DNA from: Moniliella sp. 'wahieum'
Lineage: Eukaryota
Assembly (NCBI GenBank): GCA_003971905.1
Contig: RSEE01000008.1
Location: 744,001 to 808,000, forward strand
DNA length: 64,000 nt
Direction: 5' to 3'
Shown here one piece after another: positions 1,353-61,224 of the stretch; the stretch's first letter is position 1, and each line of letters opens with the position of its first letter. Position numbers and translations under genes: made by a program. The notes below the pieces were generated by a model. It made no database searches. It was not told the origin of the DNA and saw only the letters and a list, made by a program, of their open reading frames with translations.

Positions 1353-1377
1353 AGCGCTTAGCGCTTACCGTTACCGG
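1353..1377. repeat. Palindromic heptamer array (AGCGCT-T)2 followed by ACCG(T/G) units
   Basis: agcgcttagcgcttaccgttaccgg read directly. Confidence 0.6.
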
Positions 1378-1796
1378 CGGATACCAGTTTCGGCTATTAG
1401 GCGTTATGGGTATTAGGTGCATCGGGCCTGGCGGGACAGAGGTGTGGCTGAGAGCTGCGATTGAGAGCCGAGAGCTGGGAGAGCTGAAATCGCTGCCACA
1501 GGCCACGAGGGAGAAGGATGGGCTGAGACGTGCGCGTCGTAGCTCGCGAATTAGAACCACAACTCTATATCGCAACCACTTTTGTTGGCGGGGATGAAAG
1601 CGGGGGAGCGGGCATATTAAGGTACATCGAATGCTGGATGGAAACATAGGTACGTACGTGCGCAGTGGAGCATGGTGCCTGGGGCGTGGTGCGGGGAGAG
1701 GGAGATCGGCGGGGCAAGGGGGCGCAGTGGGCGGAGCTGCTGGGCGCGGGAGGAAGGGGCAGTGTGTGGCATGGAGGGAGGGGCGACTGTGTGGGA

Positions 1797-1841
1797 GTGG
1801 CAGTGGCAGTGGCAGTGGCAGTGGCGGTGGCGGTGGCGGTG
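1797..1841. repeat. (GTGGCR)n hexanucleotide microsatellite
   Basis: About 7 tandem GTGGCA/GTGGCG units in the G-rich region upstream of the RhoGAP gene. Confidence 0.85.
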
Positions 1842-2231
1842 AAGGCGACCCAGCGGGAGGGGTGCGAATAGAGAGGGTGTGCTGCTAGGGGATCCTGCCA
1901 TGCGCTGCGTCGGCTGCCCAGCTGCCCCGGATCATCCATCGACGCTTGGGCGGCGCCGTGCCAGCGAGTGGAGTGATGCGGGGCCTGGCCGGTGATCTGC
2001 CCTGGGATGATCTCGATGATCGATGATCGCTGCTCGATGTCGATTAGGCTCAGACCTGCGCCGACGGCCCGCAGGCGCCCCCTCGTGCCCAGGCACTGCA
2101 GGGCGCCAGCCAGAGAGCAGCGTGGTGCAGCAGCCCACCCCCCTCCCCCACCCCACCCCCCCTCCGTCTGCCTCTCCTCCCCCCGTCTGCTCCTGCCCAC
2201 CACCACCACCACCACCACCACAACCCTCGCC

Positions 2232-4943
2232 ATGAGGAGCAGCCGCCCTCGCACGCGCTCTCCCCCGCCCCCGCACGCCCAGCAGCCCCGCTCCCGCTAC
2301 CCCACACGCCCTCCCCCGTCCCACCACCCCAGCCTCAATCCCAATCTCAAACCCAACCCCCATCCCAAACCCAACCGCCCTGGTCCGCCGCCGCCGCCGT
2401 CATGCGCTTCGGCCGCACTCTTGCCCGCCGCCCTCGTCCCCGTACTGAGCCCGACCCATCAACTCATCCTGCAGCCGCTCGTCGCCCCACCTTGTCTGAC
2501 CTCCCCTCCCCCTCCGCATCCACCGTATTTGGTGTGCCCCTCAACCAGTCGCTCGCCCTTGCCAGTGTCCTCATCAACTCGCCCTCCCTCCCACCACCCC
2601 AATGCTCCTGCCCAGACGCCGCGTGTCTGAGGCCTCCTACAGCTGCTGCAGTCCACTCTGCCTCGACCCCTGCTTCAACTTCATCACCCTCTTGGAACGC
2701 ATGGGGTCGTGTGCCTCTCGTTGTGGCCAAGCTTGGCAACCTGCTCAAAACCGAGGCAGTTGAGACCGAAGGTATTTTCCGCAAGGTGGGGTCACAGCGA
2801 CGTATGAAGCTGCTACAGCAGGCCTTTGAGTGTGCCCCCGACTATGGTCGTCGGCTCCAATGGGCTAGCGAGTCATTTACCGTCCATGACGCCGCCTGCG
2901 TTTTACGCCGTTATATCACTTCCCTCCCTGAGCCCTGGTGCCCGTCACGCTCTGGGAGTCTTTCCGTGAGGTTGTGTGGATGATCACGTGGCGCCCCTAC
3001 CTCCCCTCTGGTCTTACGCTCAGCCCGACAGGTGTGCATCGGGGTTAGTTGGCTCGGCCAACAGGTGGGCGGCTGCTTCGGCAGCAGCAGGGGGACATAC
3101 GATGACCGCTTCGCAGTCCAACTTGTCTATTGCCCCACCCCGTTCGGCTCCAGCATCCGTCCCAGCGTCCCAATCTCAAACCCCCCCACTCGACCGCATC
3201 GGGGGCCACCATTGCGACGAATCCGCGCGAGGCAATTGCTCGATTCGACCAATTGATCCAACAGTGTCCCATCGCAAACCGGGATTTACTCCTCTATCTG
3301 CTTGACATGCTCTCTGTCTTTGCAAGCAAAGCCGATGCAAACCGCATGACGGCCAAGAACTTGGCCGTCATTTTCCAGCCCGGTTTCTTTTACCACCCCT
3401 CACTCCTCACCAAGCCCGAAGAACATCAGTTGGCCGTCTTGGCCCTCGAGTTTCTCATTAACCAGCAATCCTTCTTCACCTGCGGTTACCAACCTGCTGG
3501 ACAACCTGGTGCCACTAAGGCAGGCGAATCTGCCAACCTGTCCTCGTCCAATGACCGGGGCGGTGGGGGTGGGAGTGGGGGTAGGACTGGCCGAAGTAAT
3601 TCAGCCGGCCCACCGTCCTCTGTTCCCTCTGCAGGTGGAGGAAACTGTGCCCCTTACCGATCTAATCCATCTTCCCGCCCAACCTCGGGTCCATCGGGCT
3701 CTTCTCAGCATTCTACCCAACGCACACCTCATCTGGGTCTCCCCAACGCATCGTCGACGAAGGGCTTGCCCCCCCCCGTCGCATATGCACCCAACCTCCT
3801 CCGTGTCTCTTCCAAACAAGCGTCGTTTTTGTCCGAGAGTTCTTCCAAGACAGAATATTCTGGTGCACATGCCCACCCCCAGGGACGAGCCGACACCGAC
3901 AATATCCACCGAGGTATCTGAGATGTCGCGAGTGAACACCAGCGAGAATGATTCTGACCTCACCGGTCTCGCTGGTTCCAAACAAACCGCTACCCCTTCG
4001 CACCGGTACGAGTGGCGTCCCCGTCCTCGTTCGTTCGTCCTCTCTCACCAACGCTGGTCCTCGCTCCGGAAAAGAAGAGGCTATGGCGTTCTCAATCGGC
4101 GCGTGTGCCTACCACTTCGCATCGACTCAGCACCGGAGCCAGTCCGCGGCGTTCCGACCCCCCATCCGGGAAAGAACCTTCTCCTGTATCCGGTGGCGTA
4201 CACTTGCTTAAGAGGCACCATTCAGCTCCCTCGCAGCTCGAGTCCGGCCGTAGGCCCGTTCCCTTTCCCGATGCTCCTCCACTGACCAAGATGAATCAGT
4301 CGCGTTCCCCTCTTCGAGTTGAACCACCTCGTTCTACACCTGCACCTGCACCCACACTCGCTCCCGCGCCAGTCCCACCTCCAGCATCCAATCCACCCGC
4401 CGTTTTAAAGTCCACATCCGTCGACTCGTCAAACATCCCAAAGACTGGCAATTGCTCCTTTTCCCTTTCGGGCCCGGTGTTGGACGAGAAAAAAGAGGGG
4501 ACAGCTCGCTCTGCCAAGAAGAATTGGCGCAGTACGCTGTCCAGCCTCTTTGCTGTGGCTCAACCGGCTGGGAAACAGAGGTAGGGCCACCCAAATCCTG
4601 GGCCCGCAGGAACAAAGCCGACGGTTCCTTCCCTCAGATTGGGCCACCGTTACTTCCTACGGCTTCGCCTCGCCTGCCTCGCCTGCCTCCTCTCAAATTG
4701 GATGAACCTGTCCGTGCGCGTACTCCACTTGGCTCTGCAGCCCGAGCACAAACCCTACGTCCAAACTTTCTTCCTAAAGCAGAGGAACCGGAACAGGGGG
4801 GTATCACACCTCGGCCCCTGCACGAGCCCAAACTCTTCTCCCCCTTCCTGGGCCTCAGAAGACCCAACAGTCCACAGCTCTACTGCCTACTTCGGGCGAC
4901 GCTTTGCATTCTCACTCTCGACTGGATCGAGAGGATCGGATGA
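2232..4943 (+). CDS. Rho GTPase-activating protein (Sac7/Bag7-like), frameshifted in this sequence
   Basis: VFGVPLNQSL...VPLVVAKLGNLLK..ETEGIFRKVGS (arginine finger)...FTVHDAACVLRRYITSLPEP in ORF 2402..2983. Continues as LLYLLDMLSVFAS..NRMTAKNLAVIFQPG in ORF 3130..3921, then a long S/P-rich tail. Start and stop are approximate. Confidence 0.8.
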
Positions 4944-6776: not shown

Positions 6777-7235
6777 ATTCGCTCTGCCTCTCTGTTGAGG
6801 GGAGCATGACCACTCGTGTTGCTGTGGTCCCGTTCGACTTCTTCCACGCTCTGCTCTTGCCCCCTGATGGCAGGTTAGGCGTTCCGTGTGTTCGTTTTGC
6901 TTCTCGCGCTGCTGTAGCTGTCATTGATACCCTGCTCCACTACGTTCCATTGGGCTTCGTCTATAGGTTACAAAGGTTGTGACATTGGCACATCATATGA
7001 TCTGAAGGAGAGTGGGTCGGTGCCAACGATGAGGTTAAACGTTGGAGAGACATCCACTTGGCAGAAATTGTACTTGACAATCCACCAGGGGGGTAATCAG
7101 GTGAAACAAAATGCGAGTATGCAGGCGACGATATCGGGTGAATATGGGAGCAACGGCGGGAGTCGAGCGAGCAGGGGTAAAGGAACAAGTCTTTACCTAC
7201 GCCGTTCGCAGCGCTTGGCCCGTTGACGGACTTCT

Positions 7236-11080: not shown

Positions 11081-11330
11081 TGTTGAACGTTGAAGTTGAA
11101 CGTTCAGTTGAACGTTGAACGTTTCGAACCGGCGCGCGCACTGGGGCAACGCGCACTGGGGCAAGCCCTGGCAAGCCAGGAAAGCCACCAGGCCAAGCCG
11201 CTGCCCAGGGTTCGACATTCGGCAGCACTATCTGTATCTGGTGTCTTTGATCCGTAAGTCTGTGCGTACGATCGATGATCGATGATCCCAGCGTTCGAGG
11301 TTCATATTTCAACGTTCAACGTTCAACGTT
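11081..11330. repeat. Cluster of palindromic heptamer arrays (AACGTT-N)n and (ATCGAT-G)n
   Basis: AACGTT units at 11085-11122; (AACGTT-C)3 at 11311-11330; ATCGAT at 11271-76 and 11278-83. Confidence 0.8.
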
Positions 11331-13049: not shown

Positions 13050-13067
13050 GTTGGGCCAAAAAGAGAA

Positions 13068-13514: not shown

Positions 13515-13520
13515 TTCAAC

Positions 13521-18178: not shown

Positions 18179-19516
18179 ACGGCAACCAGACGCAGGAAGA
18201 CATCAAATCCATTCCAAATAACACGAAAGATGGAATAGAGATTGTGGGCTTTGGGAAGAGAGAATGTAAAAAAACAAAGAAAACACGCCTACCAAACGAT
18301 GCCAGTGTCGAAGTACATAACCCTGTTGTTCTGAGGGACACTGTAGCCCGCCTCGACAGTTTCGTGCCCTGCCGAAATAGAGGGTAAGGGAAGAGAGTCA
18401 GTATACGCGACGTGCCACGGGGAGAAATATAGGGCACTTACCTGAGTTGCTAAGCTGCCAACTGTAATAACCGTCGCTGTTGGGGCCTTCCGTGTTTCCC
18501 GTAAAAGAAATGTGGTTGCGATAGAAGGGTGCGGATGGGGCGTCAGGGTTGCCGCTACCGCTGAGGAAGAAAAATTGGTCACTGTAGTGGGCGTCACCGC
18601 TGTTCTTGACACAGGGTGCCGCATCAAAGTGAGTTGTGGTGCCATTGTTATTCGTGCGGGCCCGAATGCACTTCCCGGGATGGTCCGCACTCTCAAAGTA
18701 CCCAGTTGCACTGAAGCCTCCTCCTTCAGCAAAGCTCATAATGTTCGACGCGTGCATGTAGAACTTCTCGGCACGAGCCGGCGCACCATTTGCACCCTGT
18801 TGGGAAAGCACTTGATACCCAAGCGTGTCACGGAAGCCATTGAAGGAGACTGTGTGGTTCACCGAGTTGTTGTCGGTCAGCAGCAAGCCGGCGGGGCCCC
18901 ATGTGGCGGTATATTCGTCACGGGGATTGAAGGACGTAGGCGCGGCCCAGACGAGTGCAGCGGTGGTAGCAACAGCGGCGAATAGGATGCTCTTCATTGT
19001 CGAGTGCCGATGTGGAACAAAAGGCAAAAACGGGGTGTGAGGAGAGTAGGTGGTGGGTAGTGGTGGGTGCGAGAGCGGAGTGATGGCCCCAATGAGTTGG
19101 TGATGGAGGGATGGAGAGAAGCTGCGCAGATTCAAAAGGGGCCCCTTTAAATATACCTGTCATTCAGGCGTTTTCCCACCCGCCACATCATGTAAGTAGA
19201 CCGACGCTATGCGCGTGAGAATGTAGGTAGATCCCCGAGCGGCACCCATTGCCAACCGCCCTCAGGCCTCAGGCTGAGGCCTTACGGCTTACGGCGTCCG
19301 AGGGTTAGGGGCCTAAGGCCTAAAAGGGGTAACTCGTAACGCGTGCCGCGTAAGACCGAAAGCCTCAACGCGCCTGGACGAGATTGGGAGACCTTCCGGG
19401 CGCAGATGGGGCAGTGGCCTGCTGTGGCTCCTGCGGCATTTGGGCTGCTGTGGCCCGCCACAGATTGTGCACCTGCGTACATAATGTTGCCGGACTTCCG
19501 CACCGCGTGTCCTCAA
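18179..19516 (-). repeat. Left arm of ~1.35-kb inverted duplication (partner 23745-25115)
   Basis: Reverse-complement match with constant coordinate sum 43261 from 19516/23745 to the first mismatch seen at 18477/24784; diverged but alignable out to 18179/25115. Confidence 0.95.
18289..18997 (-). CDS. Secreted protein, copy A (211 aa; exons 18997-18442 and 18368-18289)
   Basis: Signal peptide MKSILFAAVATTAALVWA; TATA-like TATATTTAAA upstream; 73-nt GTAAGT..ACTGAC..CAG intron; two Cys in GKCIRART..DAAPC..Q-F-F. Confidence 0.85.
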
Positions 19517-19803
19517 TGATTAATGATTAATGATTAACGAGGAGACCACCGGGCCTACGGCCCGGTCAGCTGGGGCTTCGCCCCAGCTTGGTGCTGCGTC
19601 GCAGCCGCCACCGTAGCCACCGTTCCCCCGTCGCCACCTTAGCCACCGTTCCCCCGGTCCACCATTGCCACTTTAGCCACCGTTCCCCCGGTCCCCCGTC
19701 GCCACCTTAGCCACCGTTCCCCCCTTCGCCACCGTAGTTATAATATCACCGATACGCGCTGGCTGCGGGTGGCTGGGAACGTGGCACCGGTCGGCACGTG
19801 CCT
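19517..19803. mobile_element. Possible non-autonomous element remnant: (ATTAATG)n, three hairpins and a GC-rich minisatellite
   Basis: Hairpins at 19548-66, 19568-88 and 19593-605; about 4 copies of a ~26-bp unit cgccaccKtagccaccgttcccccg at 19606-19736; inverted partial unit near 19768-86; palindrome GGCACGTGCC near 19794-803. No transposase or TSD seen. Confidence 0.35.
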
Positions 19804-21437
19804 ATGACGTAAAAGATGCACGGCGGATCAATTTTGCATATGACATAGAGCACTCAAGAACCGTTTTTCCCCCTGGTTTTGACGACGCGAGGATACTACG
19901 GCACCAAGACGGCGGGCAAGTTGTTTGCGCATTGGAAGGAGTTGGCTACTAAGTCTCAGTGGAAATGGTTCCTCGCTCGTATGTCAACCACGTTCCTCCG
20001 TGTCCACACGCGCTTCCTAGGGTACGGGACCGGATGGCGTGAGCCGGAGGGTCCTGATATCCTGGCGATCCCCCTGGTCCCTTAATCTTGGTGGCGCTTC
20101 CAAGTAACCCCCGCAAGATGAACGGTTCGGTTTAGACGTAGCGTTCCCCCTGTCCCAGCCTTAAGCTCTGTCAATGGAATGCACACAACATAGAGATGAC
20201 TGGCTCCAGACGGCCAAGTGTGGCATGTGATGCATGATGTATGATGCATGCGCATGATTCCTGCTGAGCTTGATGATCAATGAGGTCTCAGTCTGAGATC
20301 AGAGACCTGGAGTCCGGATGGTGCTCGAAGCTCGTGGAGGATGCAATCGCACTGGGTACTGATGATCAGTTCTAAGCCAGCCAGCAACGCCTACAGAGGA
20401 GCATCAAGCAGCGAGTCGCCACACCATGTGGCGCAAGCTGCAGAACAAGGAAACACAGGAGTGACTAGTGACTAGTGATAGTGAGGAAACAACTGAACTC
20501 CTATAGGAGAAGGCTGGGGCGCTCAGGCCTCAGCCTGAGGAGGAACTGAGGCTTGAAGGGGCGTTGGCCAAAGCACAAGCCACTCGGCGGCTCAGCTGAT
20601 GAGCTTGAAGGTCCTCGCGCTCCGGATCGTCGGAGACCCGCTATATACGTGGTGTCTCAAACGGCCGTGCGGAAGACTGTCGACATAAGTATCAGTCTAT
20701 TCGCAGTGCAGCCGGGCCGTATAGGCCCGATGGCCTCCTAGTACATACTATACACGCACACCACTTTGCTGTGGGGCCCCAAAGGCTGTGGAGGAGGCAT
20801 CTGTGACCGATCTGACCAGATGACTTCGATGACTAGTGACTAGTAACTAATGACTATAGATGACAATCACAGTGTGACTATAATAGTGGGACTAGTGCCG
20901 GTATAGGGCATATTAATTGGTACAATTGTGGCCGAGACCAGCCAACAAACAAAATATGTCGGCGTCGAGGCCGGACGTTCAGTAGCATCCATACATCAAC
21001 GTCAAATGAGTTGAACGAAGAATGCTAAGTACAAGTGCTGAGTGCTCAGTGAGTGCTTGCCGAGTGCGCTGAGTACTACTCAACTGAGTACTCAGACTGC
21101 TGTGGCTGAGTACATTCGGTACCTATACGTTCTCGATAGTGCATGTGGTCCCTTGGGAGCCAACATTTTCAATTGCATAACGGAAGCGGTAGTCCGGCAA
21201 CAAGCGTATAAGTGCTGCTGGGCCCCTGGTCTCCATCGGACCCTGTCGCCGATTCGCCGGCGTCACTACTGAGAATCTGAGCTGAGCCTCAGCACTCAAA
21301 CGCTTCAATAAAACACTTCAATAGCCGTGGCCATCTAAGCTCCTGGCCATCATCCCCCTCCACCATTACACCTCCCTCTTTTCTTCCCAACTCACAGTTC
21401 CACTCCCCCTCCATCAACGCATCACTACCACACAAAC

Positions 21438-22204: not shown

Positions 22205-23056
22205 CCGTATCGACCTCGTTCCTCTTGCAAATAACCCTGCTGATCTCTTCCACTGGTTTTCTTTTTTTGCTGCGTAATGCGCCATGTTCATCATTGATGA
22301 TGTGACTTTTACCACCACGCCCAACAACAAACCGACCCCTTCTTTTTTGGTGCATCTACCGCTGTTGTGACACCACAGCTACCGAGAACAGCCTGTGGGT
22401 CCTTGACACCCTCTTTTGAGGAGGGGGAGGGCTGAATACAGCCGCAAGGACGGCAATGTGTATTCTCCTCTGGCCTCCTTCTTTCTGTGCATATTTCCTT
22501 CGGAACTGTGCATTTCCCTCGGAACAACTCCCCTTGTTTGCCCTTCTCGACTCTTCCAGCTTAACTAGGTCCATTACACATTAACCGTAAAATCCACGTA
22601 CTGTTGCCAAACCTCTCTCATATGCGTATAGAGGATCCGTGGACACTTTGCATGCCGGGATCGGGCAGTCAGCGCCTGGCCATCATACATCAGCGCTCAG
22701 CAGCTCCCACAAGCAATCCTCAACCTTTAAAGGATCTGACCTCAGACGGGTCATGTGTAAAATCAGTCCTTCGAACGATATCTTCGAAGAGAAAGGGGAT
22801 ATATGTGTTACGGCGGGGGCAATGTCCCACTGGCGGCTTGTTACATGTTCGCAGCGACGATATATGGGGCGGGGTTACCGGGGCTACCGCGGCTATTGGA
22901 GTCATGTGGAACCCTCCCCTCCCTTTTGGCGACTGTTATGTAGTCACTATGTAGTCACGGGCTAGTCAGCACAGGGCTTCTTTTCCTTTCAGATCCCAGG
23001 ATCTCGTTGAATATTGACGCGGACGAGATATATATTGACGCGGATCTCCTGACTAT

Positions 23057-23104
23057 AGGCCTTAGGCCTTAGGCCTTACTGGTTACCGGTTACCGGTTAT
23101 CGAG
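23057..23104. repeat. In-register heptamer lattice (AGGCCT-T)3 ACTGGT-T (ACCGGT-T)2 ATCGAG
   Basis: TTA recurs every 7 bp while the 4-bp core changes. Confidence 0.85.
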
Positions 23105-23744
23105 ATTATCATGGCTCGTGATGTACGTGACGCGTGATGCATGATGATCGACGAGACCTTCCAACTCCGCCGACGCGCTCCACACTTTCGTGCGACTATG
23201 TGACCGCGGAGTGCCGGTGACCGGTGACCCGTGACCCGTGACCGTCAACACGCCACGTTGTTCGTTCGCGCGCAAGGTCGTTCGCTTGGGTTTAAAATTT
23301 AACCGTTCCGATTCCGATGGTTTACATGTTCACATGGTCGCAATATGAACTTCACCCCTCTGAGGCTAAGCCCCGCGCGGAGGCTCAGCAGGGGCTCAAT
23401 GTTCAACTGTACTGAACGTTCAACGTACTCAACTGAGCAGCAGGACTGGTGAAGCGCTGAGCACACCTAGCGACGGTGCTGAGGGTGCCGAGGCGCTGAA
23501 GCCTGCCCCGGCGCCAAGTCTCGTTGAGCGCCGTGCCATGTGCCGGACTATACGATGGGCAACATGTATGTATCATCCCCCCATCGGCTGTGTGGCATGT
23601 GTGGGGAGAGCGGGGCTTGCGAATGGGATGGCAGACTTGGATGCGTGCGCTCCGCACTGCCGTTCGAGACAAGGTGCAGGCACCCCCCGATCCTACGCGC
23701 GAGGGGCTTCAAGTTTCACCCTTGGCTGCCTGGAGCCAGAGTCT

Positions 23745-26377: not shown

Positions 26378-26378
26378 G

Positions 26379-28802: not shown

Positions 28803-31056
28803 GGTGGTGGAGTTAGGGGGGGGGGGGGGGGGGGTCAAATGCACAGCGCTGTTGTATATAGGTGTTGGTGCGATTGGGCTGAACACCTCAGCGTGCGCTG
28901 AGAGGATCCTCAGTGGTGGAGTATCAAGTGTGCGATTGTGAAAGGTGGGTAGGACGGGGTGATCGGTCTAGTATGGGCGAAGCAAGAGGAGGGATCGTGT
29001 GGCTTTCGTTTAATGAACACGTTCATAACAGAATGGACAGAGCACAGACCACTTGCCTCAGCGGCTCTATCTCGCAAACCATAATTTACTGTCGGCCGGT
29101 GAGTGTGGTGATCGGTGAGAATTGATCGAAGCAAAGAGAAGGGGCCGAATCGGGGTTGGAAGCTGGGACGTCACGCGCGTCACGACAGCACGGGACCACT
29201 ACCACGCCAACATTCAATGCACGCTCCACGAAGGCCATCAGGGCATGCCCGATAGGTATGGGTAGGGAGGGACAGGGATAATCGACAATGCTAGTTACTG
29301 AGACCACCGTGCTGAGACTTTTGGACACGCCCCATGCCGTGCGCTCAGCCTGACAGCCTCAGCCCGACGGCGCCTCAGCCTGAGAGGCGCATCGGACACC
29401 AAAGCCGAGTGATTGAGTCCACCTGGCTGGCGAATTCTCCTGGGTCGGAACCAACGACGGATGAAAGCCCCGCGCCGGCCCAGTTTCTGGCTAACCAACC
29501 CCCCGTGTCAGGTCCCACAAGTCCACAAGTCAACATCTCCAAGCCATATGACCTATTATCCTCAAGGTGAATCCAACAGTGAGGGGTCTCGAGTCGATAT
29601 GGATTGGACACGGGCCTAGAGGGGTCGTATATGGATCACAGGTCTAGGATGAATGGTTCGGCGGTTCGAGAGACGCGCCGCTGCCGGCAGAGTTTTTGAC
29701 AAATGCGTCATTGGGTGCAGTGATGGTGACCCACAGATGACCGCAACCTGACACTACGGCCTCTGAGGATCACACTGATCCTCGACGGTGATGCAATCGC
29801 ACTTTGGGCGGTGGTTGTGGTTAAGTCAACCAACAGCACCAGCCGAGAGACATCCCGAGCAAGTCGCCGCTGGGCCAGTGGCCGTGGAACTGTAAGACGG
29901 AAGTGAGAAAACGGCGGAGCTCCTAGGCTTGAGGATGGACAGAAGGGATTTTTGTCCAAACGCATGAGCCACCCTACGGCACACACATGCGTGGCCGAGA
30001 TGCACATATCGTTCTCACTTATTTGACGGTGGGGACATATTGGAATACGAGTGCTATTTCCGCGGCCGGCTGGGATACCAGAGCATACACCTATTATAAC
30101 TTCCGTCTTATCCTCCTGACCACCTGATACGCTTCTCATCCGCCAAGGTACGCCGAACTTCACACAGGACTATACCCCTTCTGGTCTGAGATAGGAGATG
30201 GCCAACGAGTGCTACATCAAAGCTATTGTCTGATGTCTGATCAGATAGCCGTCATTGATTCTTTAGTGCAGACAGCCAACTTGAGGCGAAAGCGGTCGGA
30301 AACGGTCGAGAGTGGGGGTTGCTCCCTCCTTCGTCGACAGTGGAGGAGAGAGAGCCAGGGTATATCACGACCATGGGCAAAAGCTATCAATCTTTAAGAA
30401 TGGAAGACGCCCAGTGTGACACCATTGACCCTGTGGCCCAAACCGTGACAGAAGGATGGTGAGTGGTGAGTGTGTTTTGTCTGCCGTCCAAAGGCCTGAC
30501 CTCAGGGGTGTTCCCGATTGAAGAATAGCATCCGATACCACTTTTTGCTCGTAGCGCGCAATCGATAGCCACAGTTAATCAAGGAGGCCCCGGTGTCGGA
30601 AAAGGGGCTGCTCGTGAAATTTGACCGCAGTTTCCCGCGGGCCTGCTTAGCGCTTAGCGCTTCTGAGCGCCCAATCGCTTGCGGCCGATGGGCTGGCGCG
30701 GGGGGGCACTGGGACGCTCCCGCGGTCAGCGGAACGCCGGGCTGAAATTTTGCGTAGGGTTGCAGACTTACACGCGGCTCGACACTGGTGCGGTGCCCCG
30801 CTTTTTTTTATGCCACGTTCCCGCGTCGCCGCCTAGTCCCCATCAGCGCGGAGGCTCAGCGCCCAGCCTCGCACGGGGCCAGCGTCAGGTGGTGCCCAGC
30901 CACAGCGACGCGCGGCTGGGCGATTGCTCTGCGCTGCGTTTCTCTTCTCTCCTCTCCCCACCACCGCCACCCCCCTCCGCCCTCACCGTCCCCTCGCCTC
31001 TTCTTCAGAGCACGCCCTCGAGACGTCTGCTCTGCCCTAGAGTGTAAAAACAAAAA

Positions 31057-39991: not shown

Positions 39992-40387
39992 AGATCGAAA
40001 CCGCAAGAATCGGGGGGGGAAAGATCTTCAAAAGATCTTGAGCGGGCCTCGGCCCTCAAATTCTGCAAGGTCCACGGATCCTTCAGGCGCGGAACGTGCG
40101 GGGGATGTGTGGAGCAGTCACTAGCTAGCGTGAAGAAGCTCTTGACTAGTCAAGCTAGTCATGGGTCCTTGAAGTGATTGGCACTACTCACAACGTCGTC
40201 ACTGCCGTCACAAGCGTAGCACCACAGTATGGAAACAAGACCGGGAGAGCAGAAACGTCGAGCCAGCGTGGTGTCCTCCGACGGAGGGTGCAGCGTTCTT
40301 ACCACCGGGCGAAAAAAGCCAACGTGCCCTTTCGGGGTTGAACGTACGTTGAACGTTCAAGTTATCAGGTGGTTCTGATCGATGGCC

Positions 40388-40414
40388 ATGCATCATGCAT
40401 CATGCATCATGCAT
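40388..40414. repeat. (ATGCAT-C)4 palindromic heptamer array
   Basis: Direct reading. Confidence 0.85.
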
Positions 40415-40792
40415 CATGTCCAGGTCAGGTTGAAAGTTGAAAGCAGCAAAGCGTCGCTGGCCACTCGCCGTTGCAAAATGCGCCAGCGGCCGCTGCGTGG
40501 GCAGCTACTCACGTGACCACCATTACATTCGCCCAGTAGCTTCCATCGCTACCGAACCCAAACTGCTTCCCCAGGCTGGCATGAGTTCTGGCTGCTGCTC
40601 ACCGCTGGTTGCTTGCCGCCCATGTCGGCCTGATTCCACAGCAAAAGAACTCCCAGGGCGGCAGGCTGCCAATCTAAAGAGTGAAGTTAAGTAAACAAAC
40701 TGAGCAGCGAACATGATGATTGATTTTTTGTGCGAATAAGTTGTGCTATAGAGATACAGATGCAACCAGAGTCCCGTGAAATAACGAGTGCT

Positions 40793-46891: not shown

Positions 46892-47280
46892 GGTGCTAAT
46901 GCGGGTGGTAGATCGTGTTGCGCGAACACGAGGCGCTGAGAGCGCTGCGAAGAGCTGAGATCAGCTCTGAGAGGTGGTTGCTGGTTTAAGTTTGGCTGAG
47001 GCCGCAGTGACAGTTGCCGACTGGCCTAGTAGGGTGTTTTTTATTTCTTTTTTCACATTGCCCCAGGCACTGGTGCCGTGCGGCGGGCGGAGCTGACTCG
47101 TCTCGGCAGCGTACTCGGCATTAAATATCGAGTGCCTAAATACGAACAGTGACTATCAGTGACGTACCTGCCTGACTACATCATGATCCCTTTTACGGGA
47201 CATGTCCTCGCGCTTCTGTGGGTGGGATGAGACGCTCTTTTTTGTCCGACTGCATGACTGCCGAGACACCTATAATCTTG

Positions 47281-47307
47281 AAGCTTGAAGCTTGAAGCTT
47301 GAAGCTT
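47281..47307. repeat. (AAGCTT-G)4 palindromic heptamer array
   Basis: Direct reading. Confidence 0.85.
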
Positions 47308-47761
47308 GAGAAGCGGTCAACTGGTTACATGTAACGAGGAGTCGCCATGCCGTGGATTTCACCAACAACGCTTTCCATATTACTACACACCGCCACACCC
47401 ACACCACTGCGCTCTCGACCGGTTCGCCTCCCGTTTCCCCCTCGGCGTTCATTAGGACGAAGAATCTAGGGTAGTCCCTCCGTACAATTTTGGTGTGCTT
47501 CGGTCGATAGTGGGAGAGGGTGGCATGAATTTTTCCGCGGTCGGTACAGGGAGCCCGACAGGATGACCCCCCTCGCCCCTTTGCATTTTTCTCTCGTTGC
47601 AGTGTGGTTGTCGCCAATGAGAGAAAGACGTCGTCAACCGAGTTACGGACGGGGTGTCTCCTGGCGACGTTCTCTGCTCCCTTGTTGGCCTTCTTCTTTC
47701 CTGCGCCGACCGAACCGCAAAAGAGCCGGAGACAGGGCGCTGGCATAACTAGCAGGACTAG

Positions 47762-50244: not shown

Positions 50245-51497
50245 GGTGGACAGTCTGGGGGGGGGAGAGGGAGGAGGAGGAGGAGGAGGTGGTGGTGGTG
50301 GTGGTGGTAGTCGCAGCGGTAAAGGTGGCCAGGGATGAGATATGAGTGAGAAAGCGGACAGGGTCAAAGAGGGTGGGCTGCCGATGGTGCCATCGATGCG
50401 GGGGAAAATTTCAACCTCCCAGCCCACTGCCCCCCCTGTTGGACTGCGTGGGCGCCGGGGTCCTGGCGCGTCACGTGCAGCGCTCTGATGTGGCAACCAC
50501 CCAATGGCTACTGGGGCATAGCGTCAGCCTGATGCCATCTGACTGGGGCCAGCTTCGGCCGCCGAAATGGAGCAAGATGAGGCCGATGAAGATAGGCCGA
50601 CCACATGAATGTCGAAGCCAGCAAGTAATCGATATCGACGCACAACCTCCATCTCCATCTGCATGATCCCCTGGCTGGAGCTCACATGCTCAGCGCTCAC
50701 AGCGCTTACACGCTCATACCTGTGATGGGCATTGTATCTTACGCAATACACCTCTGAGGGTGTCACGCATGAGCAGACGTGAGCGTTTGTGACATGTGAG
50801 CCCGCAGCATCCTGACCGGCCGGTGACCGGTGACCCTGGGATAACGCAGGTACTGAATACACCTGCCGATTGACATGCATGACAAGATCTACGTGACTAA
50901 GTCCCGTCTCTGATACCGATACCGATAGTTGTGGTGAAGCTTGAGTGACTAGTGAAGCTTGAAGCTTGAAGCTTGAAGTACTTTTGAACGAAGAAAGAAC
51001 TCTGGGTCTGAATGTGAGGATGAGGCGCTGGGGGCGATAGCAAGTCCCGTCTATTCTGTCATTGAGACAGATGGAGATGGGCTGGGGCTGAAGCTCTGAA
51101 GCTTGAAACGCAGCTCACTGATGTACTGATGGAGGATGCACTGTTGTTGGGGAGTGGAGGTCATGTCGACGATCATCGATCATCGCTCAATAGATGATCA
51201 CCCGGTTATCGACTGCCGCTTGCAAGTGAACACGACTAATTATAACAGGGCCTAGCAGCGGCTGGCGTTGACCGATGATCAATCGATCAATATCAATATC
51301 GTGGTTCCTGATGAAGCAGCGCCGACACTGCTCGGGTGGCTCGGGTGGCTCGGGTGCGTTTGTGCGCAGCACACTTCCTCTGCGCAGCATGAATGCCAAG
51401 CGTCTCACGCTGAGGCGCACCCGGGCGTTGCTGGCGGCACTTGGGCGTCTAACCCCACGGCTGCTTCCGCCTCTCCTCCTCCAACCCTTTCCTCACC

Positions 51498-53692: not shown

Positions 53693-55652
53693 CTAGGTCC
53701 CCCCGCACGTCACAGCGTCGCCATCTCGCTCTACCTGAGCCAACCGGTATACTGTCGGGAAATACAACATACCGAACGGAGTGACCAATGTAAGGTTGGA
53801 ATCGCCCCTGCCAAAAAGTAAGGTAACTGGCCGCCTTGCAGACTCGCTTGTTCTCCCGCTCGGCATCCCTGCCATGTTGCCCCTATCTGTGGATCCCCAA
53901 GAGCTGCCTAGGAGGGAAGACTGAGCAGCGCGCCACGGTTGCAAGGTGCTCTTGTGCCTCCGTTCGCTCTGGTCCAACGTGCGAGGTGGTGCATGACCCG
54001 TCAGGGCCGTCTTCATTGGCTTGGACACCGCACGAGGGAGCAACGAGGCTGATTCCACACGATGCGCATCCAGTGCCTTTGCGATACTAGCCAAAGTCAG
54101 CGGGACTGGCAACGTCGATTCGGGCACCTTCTGGGCGTCGCTGATGAGCGGATATATCACTTGGCCGTACGCGCGCGTGCGCAGGGGCAGGGTGATCACG
54201 TTGCGTTCCAAGTTGGCGCTTTTGGCCGCCTCGTCCAATTGGAACTGGCTGATTTTGAACCACCTGGTGTCCGTGCCTTGCGTCCTAACCGCTGGCCCCA
54301 TTCCAACGATTACGATCGACAGACTGATCGCCACGCTCGGCCAGAAGAGAAAGGTAATCGGATCGGTGGACCAAGAAGCCGCGGAAAACAGGCCCAGACG
54401 GGCAGGGGCAGGCCCATTATGTATCCAATTCCTTGCTTCCTGATTCGGCCGGATCCACTCCATATCAACCCGAACAGCTGCATTAGCGCGCATGTCCTCC
54501 GAGACTGAAGAAAAAACCACCATCGTATCGCCCCAGTGCCCTAACGCCTGGATCAGCTCGTCCCAGCTCTCGGCACGAACGACAAAGAACGGATACTGGG
54601 ATTCCCCTTCAGTTGGTCCGATCATTAGGGGGGCACCCTGCCGGGGATCCCGGAAGAGGGGAATGGTGTTGGGAAGGGCGGAACAGGTCTCTGCGGATGT
54701 GGATGTGGATGCGGATGCGGATGCGGAGATGTCGGGTCGAGCCCACACAGACGTCCGTGTCGCAGCTGGATTTTGCGGGAAGGAGAGAGGTTGAGGCTCA
54801 AATGGTGTCCGGGTCCAGCCCCATTCGATGAAGGGACCCGAGCCCGTCCGTGATTGGACCCGGTGGGGAGCCTCCCTGGTGATTGCGCTAGCATCAGTAC
54901 CAGAAAGGGGATGCTCGTTGGGAGACCGAACCGAAGCCTGCCGAGCTCGTGAGTGTGGGTCCGAAATGGAGCGTTGGGCCGAGGAGGGAGACGGCGGGCG
55001 CGGTTTGCGGAAAGGAAGAGACTGGCTCCGCCCAACACCTTCGTGATGTGAGGATTCTTGGTTTCCCATGGCCGCCCCGAGGAAGAGATGGGTGAGTCGT
55101 AGAGAATTGGGGAACACATGGGCTGATATGAGGGGCGTAATGGGGGGAGATGGATGAGAGTTACTTTGGGGTTGTGCACACAGCACTTCAGCCCAAAACG
55201 CGTCTTCTGCCTGGTCACGCCGCCAGCATTCGGCCTGGTACTCGTGTTGACTCGCTTCCATGGCTCGCTTCGTATCGCGTTCAAACGCTTCTTCTTCTGT
55301 TGCCTATCGAATTCCCGGGGTTTTGCTGCTTCCGCACGCGAAGCGGCCAAGGCGAGATGTAACTCCCATTCCTCACGTGGGTTTTCGCGCGCTTGCTCTT
55401 GCGCTTCACGGCGTGAATTCTCTAGGGCCAACGCCAGCTCAGGGTCAGGGTCCGAGTCAGGCTCAGGGTCCCAAAAGTCATCATGTGTTTGACCTTGCTC
55501 TTCCTCCTCCCGTAGAGCAGGGGCCATAGTAACAACTTGCTGCTGCGCCATTCGTTCCGCTTCTCGTCGCGCTTCTTCCTCCTTCCTATTAGTCGTCAAA
55601 GAAGCAGCAATAGCTCTGCGCAAGTCAGGATCTTCATCTTCGGGTGTGCGCT

Positions 55653-55697
<45 letters not shown>

Positions 55698-55906
55698 CCA
55701 TCGTCATCGCCATCGTCATCGCCATCGTCATCGCCATCGTCATCGCCATCGTCATCGTCATCGTCATGGCCATTGTCGGCCTCGTTATTGTCCGCGTCTT
55801 CGTAATGAGCGACATCCTTGTCATAATGACCATCGCTTTGAGCACAGTGGTTGGCGTCGTTGGCGTCGGTGATACCAAACATATCGTGTGTCGTTGTTGT
55901 CTTCAT
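53693..55906 (-). CDS. Hypothetical protein with poly-Asp tract and 3-4 ubiquitin-interacting motifs; frameshifted, may be two genes
   Basis: EDEDPDLRRAIAASL, DPDPELALALENSRREA, EEWELHLALAASRAEA and RDTKRAMEASQHE; continuous ORF 53693..55261 downstream. Confidence 0.55.
55655..55767. repeat. (TCATCG)/(CCATCG) hexamer microsatellite encoding D/DG repeats on the minus strand
   Basis: About 19 hexamer units. Confidence 0.9.
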
Positions 55907-57159
55907 CGTGGTCCCTGAGGGAGACCAAGGAATCGTGAGAGATGTGAGGAAGAGGATAATTCCAAACAGAATGATGAGGGAAGGGGAAGGGGAAGGGAAG
56001 AGGAAGAGGAAGAGATGGGCACAGCAGAAGAGACAGCCACAGGGGAAGTAGAGGTTGGTTCCGAGTCGATTCTGGAATGGGCTGGACACTCTTCCTGCTC
56101 CAGCGATGCGCCAGGCGGGTCTTCAATCACCCGGATTGTTGCCAGCCTTGACAGCAGGGGCGTTGTTGTGCGATGGCGCTGCGACATGTGGGTAGAGTAG
56201 TGGAGCGTATAGTAGTTGTGGAGAGAGCCGATGTGGAGGAGGGGTGTGGGGGGGTTAGACCAGCGTGGGTAGTGAGCTTGCTATCACTGGAATGTGTGTT
56301 TGGGTTATTGGTGGTGGGGAGGAGTGGTAGTGAAGATGGAGTGGTAGTGAAGATGGAGTGGTTGAAGGGGAGGTGTGTTGGAGACAGTAAATCAGGGGCC
56401 TGATCGGCAGAAGGGTCTATATATACTCTCTCGGGTCAGAGAGAGGAGAATGAAGACTGGAGAGTGTTCCAGTGTGAGAGGGCCGCGATGAAATATGCTG
56501 CCATTGAGCTTGAAGCCTGTGGGCCACACGGTTCGGAGCTTATTCTCTCCTCCTTGATATATACACACACACCAACACACTACCCTGTGGGTATTCCTAC
56601 AGTGTACGTGCACCGCCCTCTCCCTATATTATCCATCACAACGTCTTCTCGACGCTGTTGCGGTCGCTACAGCTGTCGCATCTGTGACATGTGACAAAAG
56701 AACCAGTGGTATAGATAGTCCGCGTGAGAGGGAGAGGAGATGAGGGTTTGGATCCAAGAGACTGAGGAAAGAGAGAGAGGTGCCCTGTTAGACGTTAGGG
56801 GCAGAACATATAGGGGAGAGTCGTCTAGACCAGCGCCACAACCGACCGGTGATGTGGAACCAGCTATACAGGCGTGATGCATGGCGCATGATGTATGATG
56901 CATGATGCATGATGCATGATGGCGCTGACAGCACCGCGACTGCCGCTGCAGTTTTTGCTTATTCAGTTGTCTCCTGGGCCGATTAGGCGCAGCCTGTCTC
57001 TTTGTCCCAGCCTGAAGGTCTGAAAATGATGTGGCTGCTGTACGGTGTAGACACGAGCATGGCATTCTAGATGGGCCTTGTTGAGCCGCGGGTGCCTCGT
57101 GCTTTGGCCCATGTCCCTTCACTTCCTCCTCAGGCCTAGAAGTACCGCTGTTTTCTCCT

Positions 57160-57160
<1 letters not shown>

Positions 57161-57192
<32 letters not shown>
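57161..57192. repeat. Poly(T) tract of 32 nt
   Basis: Direct reading. Confidence 0.9.
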
Positions 57193-57196
<4 letters not shown>

Positions 57197-57513
57197 GTCC
57201 CGCAGCTTAGCCCCTGATGGCGACTCGCTGCTTGATGTTTCTGTACTAAGGCATTGCTGGTTGCCACACCACCACCACTAGTGCGGTTGCATCACTCTTG
57301 AGGACCATCCGGACTACAGATCTCATCAGGCCTCATGTTCTCAGACCTCTCTCCTGTCTTCAACGCGTCGGCTTCAGTACCTGCTACGTACTCGAATCCC
57401 GCCTGCAAAGCTCATCAAGCAACACCACAGCGTCCTCGCGTCAACCCCCCATCATCAATTCCAGTCAAAAAAGCAGCCTTGAAGGCTTTGGTAGGAGGGA
57501 GAGAAAAAGAGAA

Positions 57514-57609
57514 TGACGAGAGTGGGATTCGAACCCACGCCCCGGAGGACTGCGGTTAAAGGTTGGAGCCACCTTAACACAGCGCGTTAGACCACTTCGC
57601 TATCTCGCC
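57514..57609 (-). tRNA. tRNA-Leu(AAG) with 16-nt intron (57556-57571)
   Basis: GGCGAGA/TCTCGTC acceptor stem, A73, D-loop GG, anticodon stem CTGTG/CGCAG around TT-AAG-G, long variable arm, GGTTCGAATCC T-loop, and a downstream TTTTT Pol III terminator. Confidence 0.93.
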
Positions 57610-57989
57610 GCATGAGATGCCAGAGTGGGATCATGGGGGGCAGGACGGATGGAGGTGCGACGGGTGTATACGCGGTGGGCCATGTGGGTAGGAGTGGGCG
57701 TGAGGATGAGGACCGTCAATCAAGTTGGTCAGCCCATCAATCAGCCTCTCTCATGCCGCCTACTACTTCTACCACGTTCGGCGTCCGCCCAGGCACTCCA
57801 TGGCCCTGCCTCAGGTGCCCTCTCAGATCTCAGGCCTCTCATCCTGCCTCTCACGGCCCCGCACGGCTGCTGTATGGTGCTGCCACGCCCAGGTAGGGTT
57901 CGCACCTGCGCGGCCCCCTGCGTCGGGTACTGCTGTGCTTGCGTGTTCTTCTTCTTCCTTGTTGCAGTCATCGATCTCTTCGGACGCAA

Positions 57990-58620
57990 AACACTTCAGC
58001 CCAAACGCTTCCTCCCGGCCCGGCTGGCGTTCAGCCAGGTACAGGTCATGGTCGTATTGACTCAGATCCATGGCTAGCCTCAGCTCCCAGACAAACTCCA
58101 GCTCTTTTGTGCATGGCGTTCCAGGGATTCTACTTCCATATGCGAAGCGGCCAAGGCGACCTGTAACTCCCTTTCCTCGAGTGTTGTTTCACGCGCTTGC
58201 TTTCTTGCGCTTCACGGCGTGAATTCTCTAGGGCCAACGCCAGCTCAGGGTCAGGGCCCCAAATGTCATCATGTGTCTGACCTTGCTCTTCCTCCTCCAC
58301 TGGAGCAGGGGCCATAGTAACAACTTGCTGCTGCGCCATTCGTCCGTTTCTCGTCGCGCTTCTTCCCGTTCAGTTTGCTCTCGCGCTGACTCGGCCAGAG
58401 CATCGTTCAGAGCCCGTTGCGCTTCCTCCTGCTCCCTTGTATCCGCAAAGAGGCAGCGATAGCTCTGAGAACTCGGGATTTCGTCTTCGGTTTCGGTTTC
58501 GTTTCGGTTTCGGTTTCGTCTTCGGTTTCGGTTTCATCATCGTCATGGTCATCGTACATCGAGTGAGCGGTGTTATTGGCGTGTTGGCATCGTTCAGGCC
58601 AAAATATCTCACGTCGTCAG
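57990..58620 (-). pseudogene. Truncated or degenerate duplicate of the 5' part of the UIM gene
   Basis: Shares MAQQQVVTMAPA..EEEEQGQTHDD.W..DPELALALENSRREAQE with 55180-55640; (GAAACC)n replaces the poly-Asp repeat; homology ends near 57990. Confidence 0.6.
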
Positions 58621-60393
58621 GAGGGAGAGGAGGGAAGGGGGGGGGAAAACGGGTGGGGTAGAGAAGGGAGGGGAAGGGAAGAAGGGGGAGGGGAATAAGC
58701 AGGGCATCGTCCACTGGGGTCGTTTCGGGAAATAGGGAGGAAGCTCTTCGTACTCCGCCAATACGCGAGGCTCAGGATCATACACTCGGATTGATGGCAG
58801 CCTTGTCAGAAATATGATCTGGCGCGGGGGCGATAGGGCATAATGAATAAGAGCAAGTGGAGAATAGATGCGGGGCCGGTGTGGAGGGGGAAGACCAGCG
58901 CGGGCGATATGCGCTGCCACAGAATTGTTTATTGGTTTGGTGGAGAACAGAGACCGAGGATGAGCGATGAGATCTGAGAGCGAATGGAGGAGTGCGGGAG
59001 GAAATAAACCAAGAGAGGATAAAGCTACTAAGCTGGATATCGACAGGGTCATATATACTTGGCGTTTCTACTTCAATTCTCTGCACATAGTGTGGCCCCC
59101 GGTGGGATGGATTTTGGGTCCCAGCACGACTAGTGAGACGCAAAAGGGGGATGAAGACTGATATGTGCTCGATTAACTAGTAACATGAGAGGGTCGAGAA
59201 AGACGCTTCCATTGGGTGTACCTGGGCCACACGATTCGGAGCTTACGCGCTTGGTGATGCATCCTCATATTGTACATTCTGATATGATTTACAGAACTTA
59301 ACTGGCTGCGCCAAACAAACGCTGCACCTAAACCGTCCTGCTCACATCCGGCGTGTGCTGCTTTTATTGTTGGCATCAAATCCCAAAGTTAGGACACCAC
59401 CGCGGGGTCGCCAATAGACCAGTGCCTCTGGCTCCACCGCCCTTTGCTCTCAAACTGGATGTAGCGCGCGTGGATAAGAATGAGCGTGTGTGGTAGACAT
59501 GTTTGCCATATAAGTGGTGAATGTCGGCCGGGTGAACCACATCTCCAACGAGATCAATGAGACTCTTCATCAGTTAATTATATACTAAAGGGTAAGTAGG
59601 ATCTTATATATAGCCGAGATTATACTATTAGTAGGACGGCGTTAGGCATCGCCCCAACAGCTCCGCCACGACGCATGCGGACGAGGCGGTGAGGGGCGAA
59701 GGGCACCATGGCCAAGTAGCACCACACCACCAGCCTCGTGTGGGAAGAGAGCATGGGCGCAGGACGAAGGTGCCGAAATTTATTATTGGCAAACGTCTTT
59801 TCTTCAATGACAGCCTCCCCCCCTCAGGGAGGGCAACTCGGACCGCGTACGGTTGGAAGAGCGCGAAGAGGTGGTGTCCGGGTTGACGAGGCATACACCG
59901 GCGTTGCGGTCCCAAGGTTGCGTTGGCCTCTATGCGGACAGAGGAACATCAAGCAGCCAGTCGCCACCAGAGTCTAACTTGCGGAACAAGGAAAACAGGA
60001 GGGAGAAAAACAATGGAACTCCTACGCTGCGGACTAAAGGAGACGTTACCACCCACATATCACACGAGCGACCCACGGTGGCTCAAACGTGGGTGGCTCA
60101 ACACACCAATAATTATGCGCAGTCCGATTGAGAGACGCTTCGGTGCTGTGTGTGATAATAGAAAAAAACGGTCTGCCCCCTCTCTCCTTGGACGAGGGAG
60201 GGTAGCTGGGCCGCAGGAGGGCCAAAAGGCGCTGAATGCCGGCAGGGGCAGCAAGCTAGAGGCCAGAAAGACGTTGGCTGCGGTGTGGAGGGTGTGTGCC
60301 TGTTGGTACAGAGGGCTTTGCACTGTGCGCCGCGCCTGATGAGTCGCGGACGGTCGTTGCCAGGAAGCGTCAGGAGGGGAATGAAAAAGAAAG

Positions 60394-60487
60394 TGACGAG
60401 AGTGGGATTCGAACCCACGCCCCGGAGGACTGCGGTTAGGGGGGGAGCTCCTTAACACAGCGCGTTAGACCACTTCGCTATCTCGCC
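60394..60487 (-). tRNA. tRNA-Leu(AAG) with 14-nt intron (60436-60449)
   Basis: Exons identical to the 57514-57609 copy; different intron; T-run terminator downstream. Confidence 0.93.
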
Positions 60488-60573
60488 GCGTGGGGGCTGG
60501 TCAATGTGCAGGTGGGGGGGATGGATGGGGTGCAACGGGGATATGCGCTGGTGGTCCATGTGCGTGGTGAGAG

Positions 60574-60728
60574 CGCTAGTGAGTACTGAGTACCACTGAG
60601 TACCGCTGAGTCTCAGTGTACGCCTCACTAGCTTCACTAGTTACTAGTTACTAGTCACTAGTCACTGCTCAGCTGAGCCTCAGCGTTGAGCAGCAGTGTC
60701 GTGGGCGCGCGCTGAGCCTGAGCGCTGA
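60574..60728. repeat. Dense palindromic heptamer cluster including (ACTAGT-Y)4
   Basis: ACTAGT at 60636, 60643, 60650 and 60657; AGTACT-G units near 60582; GCTCAGCTGAGC. Confidence 0.85.
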
Positions 60729-61224
60729 CGCGGGAGAGACGCGTGATGCGTGAGGACGAGGACCGTCGATCATCGATCACGCTTCCGAGCGGAGGGCTGG
60801 GGGCGGCTGCTGAACGCGATTGCACCGATTGGTGCGGCGGGATGTCACATGCTTCATCACATGCCGCCTGCAACTTCTACCAGCGTTCGGTATCCGCGGA
60901 GGCACTGTCGGGCGCTGTCCAGCACTGCCTTGCACGGCCGCGCGCGGCGGCTGTGTGCTGCAGCCGCCCGGTAGGGTTCGCTTCGGCGCAGCCCCCTGCG
61001 TCTGACGTCATGTCAGCGATCGCCCCCGCGCACCGGGGCGCTGTGGGGCGCGGGCGGCTGCGCTGCTGCTGTGCGGGCACCCGCCCGCTGTTCCCCCTGC
61101 GTCGCCCGGGCTCTCGCGGCGGCGGCCAGCGCAGGCAGCTGCCCTCCGCTTCCTCGCCTAGCCCTCGCCTCTACACTCGCCCACGCCCCGCCCCCCCCCC
61201 CACCACCCATCCCCATCCCCACGC

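Follow-up and report, generated by a model that had tools for sequence, protein, structure and literature searches.

Palindromic heptamer arrays between the genes of Moniliella sp. 'wahieum': candidate excision scars of a cut-and-paste transposon

The non-coding DNA of a 64-kb stretch of the nuclear genome of the fungus Moniliella sp. 'wahieum' (assembly GCA_003971905.1, contig RSEE01000008.1, positions 744,001 to 808,000; G+C 57.3%; hereafter the window) carries short tandem arrays of 7-bp units, in which 4-bp palindromes are enclosed by triplets of the form T.A, the dot being any base. An earlier note on this DNA had described these units as an A..T hexamer palindrome plus one spacer base, and this observation is confirmed: all 20 array coordinates given there carry units as described. 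We find that the arrays are built from insertions of seven nucleotides whose core is templated by the immediate flank, and on balance we lean towards reading them as the scars of a cut-and-paste transposon that makes a 7-bp target duplication centred on T.A and is excised via perfect hairpins of the flanking DNA.

T.A-flanked palindromes in the window

The 10-mer T.A-[4-bp palindrome]-T.A was counted and compared with an order-3 Markov null (100 simulations). It occurs 87 times, with 6.2 expected and a simulation maximum of 12. The other 15 flank classes (P.R-[4-bp palindrome]-P.R) stayed near the null, among them A.T (5 vs 5.7), C.G (16 vs 20.7) and G.C (14 vs 22.2); the highest was G.G with 36 vs 25.3 expected. 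Likewise, a palindromic hexamer followed by one base and the same hexamer was found 26 times for A..T and not once for T..A, C..G or G..C (null 0.05-0.08 each); the earlier note had noticed no arrays of the latter three classes. Among the period-7 repeats found of 14 nt or more, only TAGGTCC x2 at 53687-53700 has a palindromic hexamer outside the A..T class (CCTAGG plus one base). Exact runs of 14 nt or more were counted by period: there are 42 at period 7, 5 each at periods 8 and 9, and 78 at period 6, the last including coding triplet repeats. The core length is sharply peaked, with 87 pairs of T.A at a gap of 4 (6.4 expected), 27 at a gap of 2 (24.8 expected) and 4 at a gap of 6 (1.5 expected). 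Weak enrichment was seen at gaps of 3 (55 vs 23.9) and 5 (16 vs 6.5), which would be expected from end joining with one base gained or lost.

The 87 links group into 66 chains: 53 are single-link chains, 8 have two links, 2 have three and 3 have four. Fifteen of the 16 possible cores are used, TATA alone being missing; the 13 listed before were all found, and AATT and ATAT have to be added. Neighbouring spacer bases are identical in 69 of the 87 links, complementary in 11 and neither of the two in 7, and with the same spacer base on both sides of most cores a 5-nt direct repeat is present at a fixed spacing of 7 nt. On the plus strand the spacer of the T.A triplets is G in 75 cases, C in 42, T in 25 and A in 11; the excess of G over C and of T over A has no clear tie to gene orientation (tandem gaps, counted by eye). 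The arrays are indeed self-complementary about both core and spacer, but this follows trivially from a palindromic core between T.A triplets.

The placement of the chains was determined on our own rough codon-bias map, which was trained on Pfam-supported open reading frames (ORFs) and assigns 34% of the window to likely coding segments. Only 2 of the 66 chains lie within these segments, in line with the claim that the arrays avoid coding DNA, and 17 of the 30 intervening gaps that measure 300 bp or more contain chains. With respect to the nearest likely exon, 48 chains lie on the 5' side and 16 on the 3' side. Divergent gaps hold 25 chains in 10.7 kb, tandem gaps 34 in 22.4 kb and convergent gaps 5 in 7.1 kb. 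The chains are also clustered: 25 neighbour gaps are shorter than 100 bp where 8.8 are expected, a value matched by none of 2000 permutations. The arrays are local and have no long-range register. Neighbouring chains at most 70 bp apart share the 7-bp register in 2 of 24 cases (chance ~3.4), and the window-wide lattice that had been proposed has to be given up.

The elementary event is a 7-nt flank-templated insertion

The single-link chains (n = 53) reveal where the cores come from. In 12 of them the outer dinucleotide equals the adjoining core half on both sides, in 24 on one side and in 17 on neither; the core matches at least one flank in 36 of 53 chains, where chance would give ~12% (~6% per side). 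In addition, every 14-mer of the window was compared with the 64 ideal dimers of the unit ab-TNA-b'a' (primes marking complementary bases), which gave 48 isolated matches with at most two mismatches. Over positions 1-14 their mismatches number 9, 9, 0, 3, 5, 3, 4, 2, 4, 5, 1, 0, 9 and 17, and one outer dinucleotide is wholly mismatched in 12 of the 32 two-mismatch 14-mers, while simulated sequence gave 6.15 two-mismatch matches with a flat profile. The pile-up at the outer dinucleotides indicates that the minimal product is not the 14-mer but the 12-mer ab-TNA-b'a'-ab-TNA next to an unrelated cd, or the mirror of this. The basic event is an insertion of exactly 7 nt at a site ab-TNA-cd, in which five bases are copied directly (abTNA or TNAcd) and two flank bases inversely, giving ab-TNA-b'a'-ab-TNA-cd or ab-TNA-cd-d'c'-TNA-cd and, in both cases, a 4-bp palindrome between two T.A triplets. 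Such a 12-mer cannot be made by whole-heptamer duplication or slippage.

Short arrays grow by repeated hits at one spot. In the chain at 23128 the cores CGCG and TGCA are both predicted from the single site CG-TGA-TG, and in the chain at 50946 the cores CTAG and AGCT from the single site AG-TGA-AG, in each case by one left-type and one right-type event. Taken over the 1855 non-coding T.A sites, the 87 links correspond to ~4.7% per site; by our own arithmetic random re-hitting would give ~8, 2 and 1 chains with at least two, three and four links, where 13, 5 and 3 were seen, so that modest hot-spotting or some slippage suffices for the observed array sizes. No clear target preference beyond T and A was found in 31 reconstructed targets, and the preference for G or C as spacer in these targets is that of the background of non-coding T.A sites. 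Exact 14-mer duplications number 35 (0.05 expected). Duplications that lack a palindrome are rare: five of the 35 have a non-palindromic core, and three of these five are real. The array at 23214..23243 shows such a unit duplication without a palindrome.

Two array sites could be compared with paralogous copies. Set against the paralogous repeat copy at 59938-60040, the array at 20460-20484 adds 19-20 nt; the copy has AG-GGA-GA in its place, with neither a T.A nor an array. The CTAG core of the array is an inverse copy of its left flank AG, as the rule predicts. The second comparison, TCGATCA x2 at 60766 against a single TCAATCA in the paralogue at ~57712-57722, is weaker and may be called suggestive, as the case lies at the edge of homology, which stops just beyond.

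Proposed model of insertion and excision

Three considerations lead from the event to a mechanism. T.A alone is enriched although A.T, C.G and G.C are equally self-complementary, and therefore a base-specific protein must choose the site. A 4-bp palindrome without spacer cannot form by fold-back of a free end, which argues for a covalently closed hairpin end. Since a hairpin adds inverted bases only, the 5-nt direct copy at a distance of 7 nt calls for two joints spaced by 7 bp and something that lay between the two. Indeed, insertion with a 7-bp duplication followed by excision would yield exactly both observed products.

We propose that at each event a cut-and-paste DNA transposon was inserted once and excised once. 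It would pick T.A-centred targets and duplicate the 7 bp abTNAcd, and its excision would leave both flanks as covalently closed perfect hairpins without an offset base. A host nuclease would then nick each hairpin 2 nt 3' of its tip, giving duplexes that end at TNA with the self-complementary 4-nt 3' overhangs cdd'c' and b'a'ab, and end joining would retain one overhang and drop the other, with a net gain of 7 nt and a flank-templated palindromic core. In coding DNA such 7-nt insertions would be frameshifts and be purged, and a preference for open promoter DNA would account for the 5'-side bias and the clustering. Two traits of excision scars are observed in the arrays, a short direct repeat, as a retained target duplication would leave, and junction bases inverted from the adjoining flank. 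A 7-bp T.A-centred duplication fits the scar geometry; an occupied site was not seen in the window. Hairpin-opening repair had been the second reading of the earlier note, and it fits the flank templating, the outer-dinucleotide mismatches and the array-free paralogue.

Two variants of the model were tried and rejected. A 5-bp duplication predicts equally many products of the form TNA-TN'-ab-TNA or its mirror. It gave 13 hits, 11 of which are ambiguous with the palindromic cores TCGA and TGCA, while one-sided chains of the main class number 24; the symmetric 7-bp model was preferred because only 2 of the 13 hits are unambiguous. Retention of both overhangs (TNA-[4-bp palindrome]-[4-bp palindrome]-TNA) was found twice with 0.4 expected, and neither case obeys the flank rule.

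Several findings weigh against a transposon as the source of the scars. No transposase domain was detected by Pfam in the 209 ORFs of at least 110 aa of the window, and a scan of the 64 kb for 5-9-bp direct repeats bracketing inverted termini revealed no resident element. What the scan returned were array-versus-array matches, the inverted gene duplication described below and scattered 12-of-14 terminal matches at 5-bp or 7-bp repeats, which we take for chance. When the scan was relaxed to 7-bp T.A-centred repeats with 9 or more of 12 terminal bases matching, 8 hits were obtained, none of them an element; arrays account for six as artefacts and for a seventh as a partial match, and the eighth spans two housekeeping genes. 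The scars are, moreover, far more uniform than published Ds footprints. The 17 single-link chains that match neither flank compare with ~6 by chance, and several of them are perfect palindromes. Two secondary classes are enriched that the scheme above does not provide for, even perfect palindromes with T.A two bases from the centre (11 vs 1.9 expected) and odd perfect palindromes with T.A one base from the centre (27 vs 7.0 expected), and a third T.A does not consistently follow these inverted palindromes. Finally, the promoter bias of the chains could also reflect function. The arms of the inverted-class palindromes rarely exceed the seven bases abTNAcd, and these classes may represent long tracts of palindromic (P) nucleotides or hAT-like offset hairpins, which is a loose fit.

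A large part of the odd inverted class consists of recurrent palindromes of the form CTSAG-N-CTSAG, such as GCTGAGcCTCAGC, which occurs twice; they lie at 21281-21293, 60672-60684, 20528-20540, 19264-19282 and 29345-29383 and could be a separate motif family. At 17855-17880 a 26-bp perfect palindrome is made of two copies of CTAAGGCCTTAG and has T.A units throughout.

Comparison with known systems

A close likeness to the dominant filler is found in the P nucleotides of V(D)J joints. Artemis:DNA-PKcs opens hairpins mainly at the +2 position and thereby leaves mostly 4-nt inverted-repeat 3' overhangs (PMC2175297); a perfect hairpin opened in this way gives a 4-nt self-complementary overhang, and an even, flank-templated 4-bp palindrome is what dominates here. 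The dominant 4-nt filler thus matches opening of the V(D)J type, and the same enzymology may be at work. The RAG hairpin is a perfect hairpin; this fungus is not known to have RAG. V(D)J joints differ in having no target duplication and in losing most P nucleotides to nibbling (PMC2175297), whereas the scars in the window are uniform and lie at T.A.

Flanking-DNA hairpins that are opened by host enzymes are formed by hAT, Transib, MULE and RAG systems (PMC5499845). Ac/Ds, a hAT system studied in plants, budding yeast and Candida albicans, shares with our model a target duplication that is kept, P nucleotides from flank hairpins and repair by the host (PMC5873905). Its duplication is of 8 bp, however, its palindromes are odd-centred, on the complement of the base that adjoins the element, and its footprints vary, with 28 kinds among 128 Ds excisions in C. 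albicans (PMC5873905); the present scars have a spacing of 7 bp, a main class with even centres and near-uniform products. Of the classes found, only the secondary one of odd palindromes (27 vs 7.0) has a hAT-like geometry. With their even centres, the main scars speak against classical hAT chemistry and for a perfect hairpin of the RAG/Transib or MULE kind. In the MULE Muta1 both strands of the flank hairpin are equal (43 + 43 nt; PMC5499845), which matches the even-centred palindromes, but MULEs make longer duplications of 8-10 bp and in yeast Muta1 was excised precisely in over 90% of cases (PMC5499845). Cut-and-paste elements with 7-bp duplications are described from Basidiomycota, namely hAT7 in Pucciniales (rusts) and Kyakuja in Agaricomycotina (PMC12730594). 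In the excerpt of that paper neither is reported from Ustilaginomycotina and no T.A target preference is stated, and the window contains neither.

Heptanucleotide microsatellites also form short head-to-tail arrays of 7-bp units; what sets the present arrays apart is one grammar over 15 cores and two-unit births that are flank-templated 12-mers. Arrays of the unit TGAAGCT are present in at least 120 metagenome stretches, and 46 of the (TGAAGCT)n loci, each 5 kb or longer (580 kb in total, two of them overlapping on one contig), served as a control. Other T.A links amount to 0.15 per kb pooled over these loci (maximum 0.50) and to 1.20 per kb here, and relative to the 15 control classes the values are 0.035 and 0.32, respectively. 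By this comparison the T.A scar pattern is lineage-specific and not a general property of such heptamers. No look-alike windows were found among the other genomes compared. Literature searches retrieved no published description of array-building scars of this kind, and one on the link to heptamers of U. maydis, which the earlier note had raised, found nothing; this link is not supported.

Alternative explanations

The main rival to the transposon model is a host enzyme that acts without an element, for example a domesticated transposase. A T.A-specific hairpin-forming nuclease of this kind would be an endogenous, site-specific source of mutation, and it would fit a window that contains no element and has scars of unusual uniformity and clustering (25 gaps below 100 bp vs 8.8 expected). 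We nevertheless regard it as unlikely, if worth keeping in view. A single hairpin break should yield inverted bases only, so that the 5-nt direct copy would need two staggered joints, and fill-in of a staggered cut predicts non-palindromic 14-mer duplications, of which only 3 real ones exist. A small part of the probability also goes to a broader version, in which either the host has retained a T.A-specific transposase-like enzyme without its element or an element is so active and so cleanly excised that its scars alone remain. Errors of replication, either slippage of hairpin-prone heptamers or template switching at quasi-palindromes, seem improbable as the origin: neither explains why T.A alone is used when A.T, C.G and G.C are equally self-complementary, why other palindrome classes have no arrays, or why the minimal 12-mer product has an unrelated flank on one side, and a loop-free 4-bp palindrome should not be obtainable from a free 3' end that folds back. 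The TGAAGCT arrays of the metagenome loci, furthermore, come without other cores. On the other hand, arrays reach 4.7 copies, the non-palindromic units CCCGTGA, GGTGAGT and GTTGAAA were duplicated too, and multi-link chains are somewhat commoner than random re-hitting predicts; slippage may well add to the growth of the longer arrays.

The first reading of the earlier note, sites of a regulatory or chromatin factor selected at 7-bp spacing, draws on the 5'-side bias (48 vs 16), the high density in divergent gaps and the clustering of the chains. As an account of their origin we consider it a little less probable still than replication errors, because 15 of 16 cores are used and are dictated by the local flank, neighbouring arrays share no register, most arrays have just two units and one paralogue has no array at all. 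We know of no factor whose recognition is limited to a T and an A two positions apart. A factor for TNA-N4-TNA is not needed, and the flank-derived cores and the absent register speak against such an origin; later regulatory co-option of the arrays is possible. An element that makes a TNA duplication of 3 bp (PIF/Harbinger- or Tc1-like) would leave canonical footprints that consist of the duplication and two terminal bases from each inverted end; these would have the form TNA-xy-y'x'-TNA and thus look like the links, and TNA is the target of Harbinger-type elements. Canonical Harbinger elements make 3-bp duplications (PMC12730594). This explanation is very unlikely, as ~15 element families with different termini would be required. 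It is contradicted by the flank match in 36 of 53 single-link chains, since the core should be independent of the flank, and both core-switching chains are predicted by their own flanks. An artefact of assembly or sequencing is hardly credible, given arrays of at most 33 nt that follow a base-specific rule, avoid coding DNA and do not differ between the two arms of an inverted duplication of 1051 nt.

If the transposon model is true, the genome holds one stereotyped repair product in very many copies, tens of thousands when extrapolated from 87 links in 64 kb. These would show, without an experiment, how a basidiomycete yeast opens hairpins (mostly at +2) and joins non-matching 3' overhangs. 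Transposon traffic alone could then seed heptanucleotide repeats and palindromic motifs preferentially near gene starts, where the scars would be raw material for promoter evolution. The perfect-hairpin geometry narrows the search for the element. If an element-free enzyme or a vanishing element is at work instead, an endogenous site-specific mutation process would write 7-bp palindromic repeats into promoters, and the scars would be a natural genome-wide record of hairpin opening and end joining in a fungus.

Array catalogue

The chains named above and further examples are compiled in Table 1.

Table 1 Heptamer arrays, array clusters and inverted-class palindromes of the window
Positions	Strand	Feature
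1352..1367	.	TAGCGCT x2.3, one-sided event GC-TTA-GCGC-TTA-cc
11082..11330	.	Five-chain cluster (AACGTT and ATCGAT units) between two minus-strand genes
19260..19537	.	Cluster of AGGCCT units, non-palindromic CTTACGG x2 and (AATGATT)x3.3
20228..21094	.	Further chains of ATGCAT, AGGCCT, ACTAGT and AGTACT units, between the two arms of the inverted duplication (4.2-kb spacer)
20460..20484	.	AG-TGA-CTAG-TGA-CTAG-TGA-TAG-TGA-GG
20528..20540	.	Odd inverted-class example, 13-bp palindrome CCTCAG-c-CTGAGG
23056..23099	.	Adjoining (TAGGCCT)x3.3 and (TTACCGG)x2.7-3.4, in register via one hybrid unit
23126..23146	.	Core-switching array CG-TGA-CGCG-TGA-TGCA-TGA-TG
23214..23243	.	CCGGTGA x2.3, then non-palindromic variant CCCGTGA x2.9
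30645..30662	.	GCTTAGC x2.6, upstream of poly(A)-binding-protein gene
40141..40154	.	Inverted-class example, 14-bp perfect palindrome CTTGACT/AGTCAAG, T.A with complementary spacers
40387..40418	.	(CATGCAT)x4.6, three links
47277..47309	.	Longest array, (CTTGAAG)x4.7 = repeated TGA-AGCT, four links
50688..51185	.	Seven-chain cluster upstream of VTT-domain gene
50944..50978	.	Core-switching array AG-TGA-CTAG-TGA-AGCT-TGA-AGCT-TGA-AGCT-TGA
56895..56921	.	(ATGATGC)x3.9, three links
60634..60666	.	TCA/TTA-CTAG array, four links; spacers C, T, T, C, C
60766..60779	.	TCGATCA x2

Duplications and other features of the window

The repeat used in the first paralogue comparison is a dispersed repeat of ~60-120 bp with three copies at 81-83% identity (20393-20461, 59938-60001 and, inverted, 57189-57244). 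One copy bears a heptamer array and another has a 32-base poly-A/T run at the same place. An old tandem duplication of ~2.8-2.9 kb comprises 55326-57924 and 58130-61002, with 81-84% identity in three blocks, and its paralogues are mostly unalignable across the array zone. Each tandem copy has an intron-containing tRNA gene, at 57514-57609 (tRNA-Pro AGG) and 60393-60487. Both are scored as tRNA by Rfam; ARAGORN reports a 4-base anticodon for the latter, which is probably due to the intron.

A gene whose family is unassigned is present as an inverted duplication at 18179-19519 and 23742-25115, with 1051 nt that are 100% identical and flanks of 88-97% identity, and a third, diverged copy of its coding part lies at 21438-21824. 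The identity ends exactly at the (AATGATT)x3.3 array, at 19515, and the 4.2-kb spacer of the duplication is the most array-dense stretch of the window.

Pfam domains in the window are those of an eisosome Pil1-like protein, a ClpB/Hsp78-type chaperone, a poly(A)-binding protein, the ribosomal proteins S6e, S13/S15 and L13e, Dad2, RhoGAP and others. The best named relative of the ClpB/Hsp78-type chaperone is that of Tilletiaria anomala (62% identity), followed by Malassezia, Exobasidium, Meira and Tilletia with 52-57%, and in two further assemblies Hsp78 is 91% and 85% identical. These matches place the fungus in the Ustilaginomycotina, probably close to the Exobasidiomycetes. An imperfect TCGTCA/TCGCCA hexamer repeat of ~19 units at 55653-55777 lies in a likely minus-strand coding segment, as an acidic low-complexity tract. 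Homopolymers are represented by 32 T at 57161-57192 and 19 G at 28816-28834.

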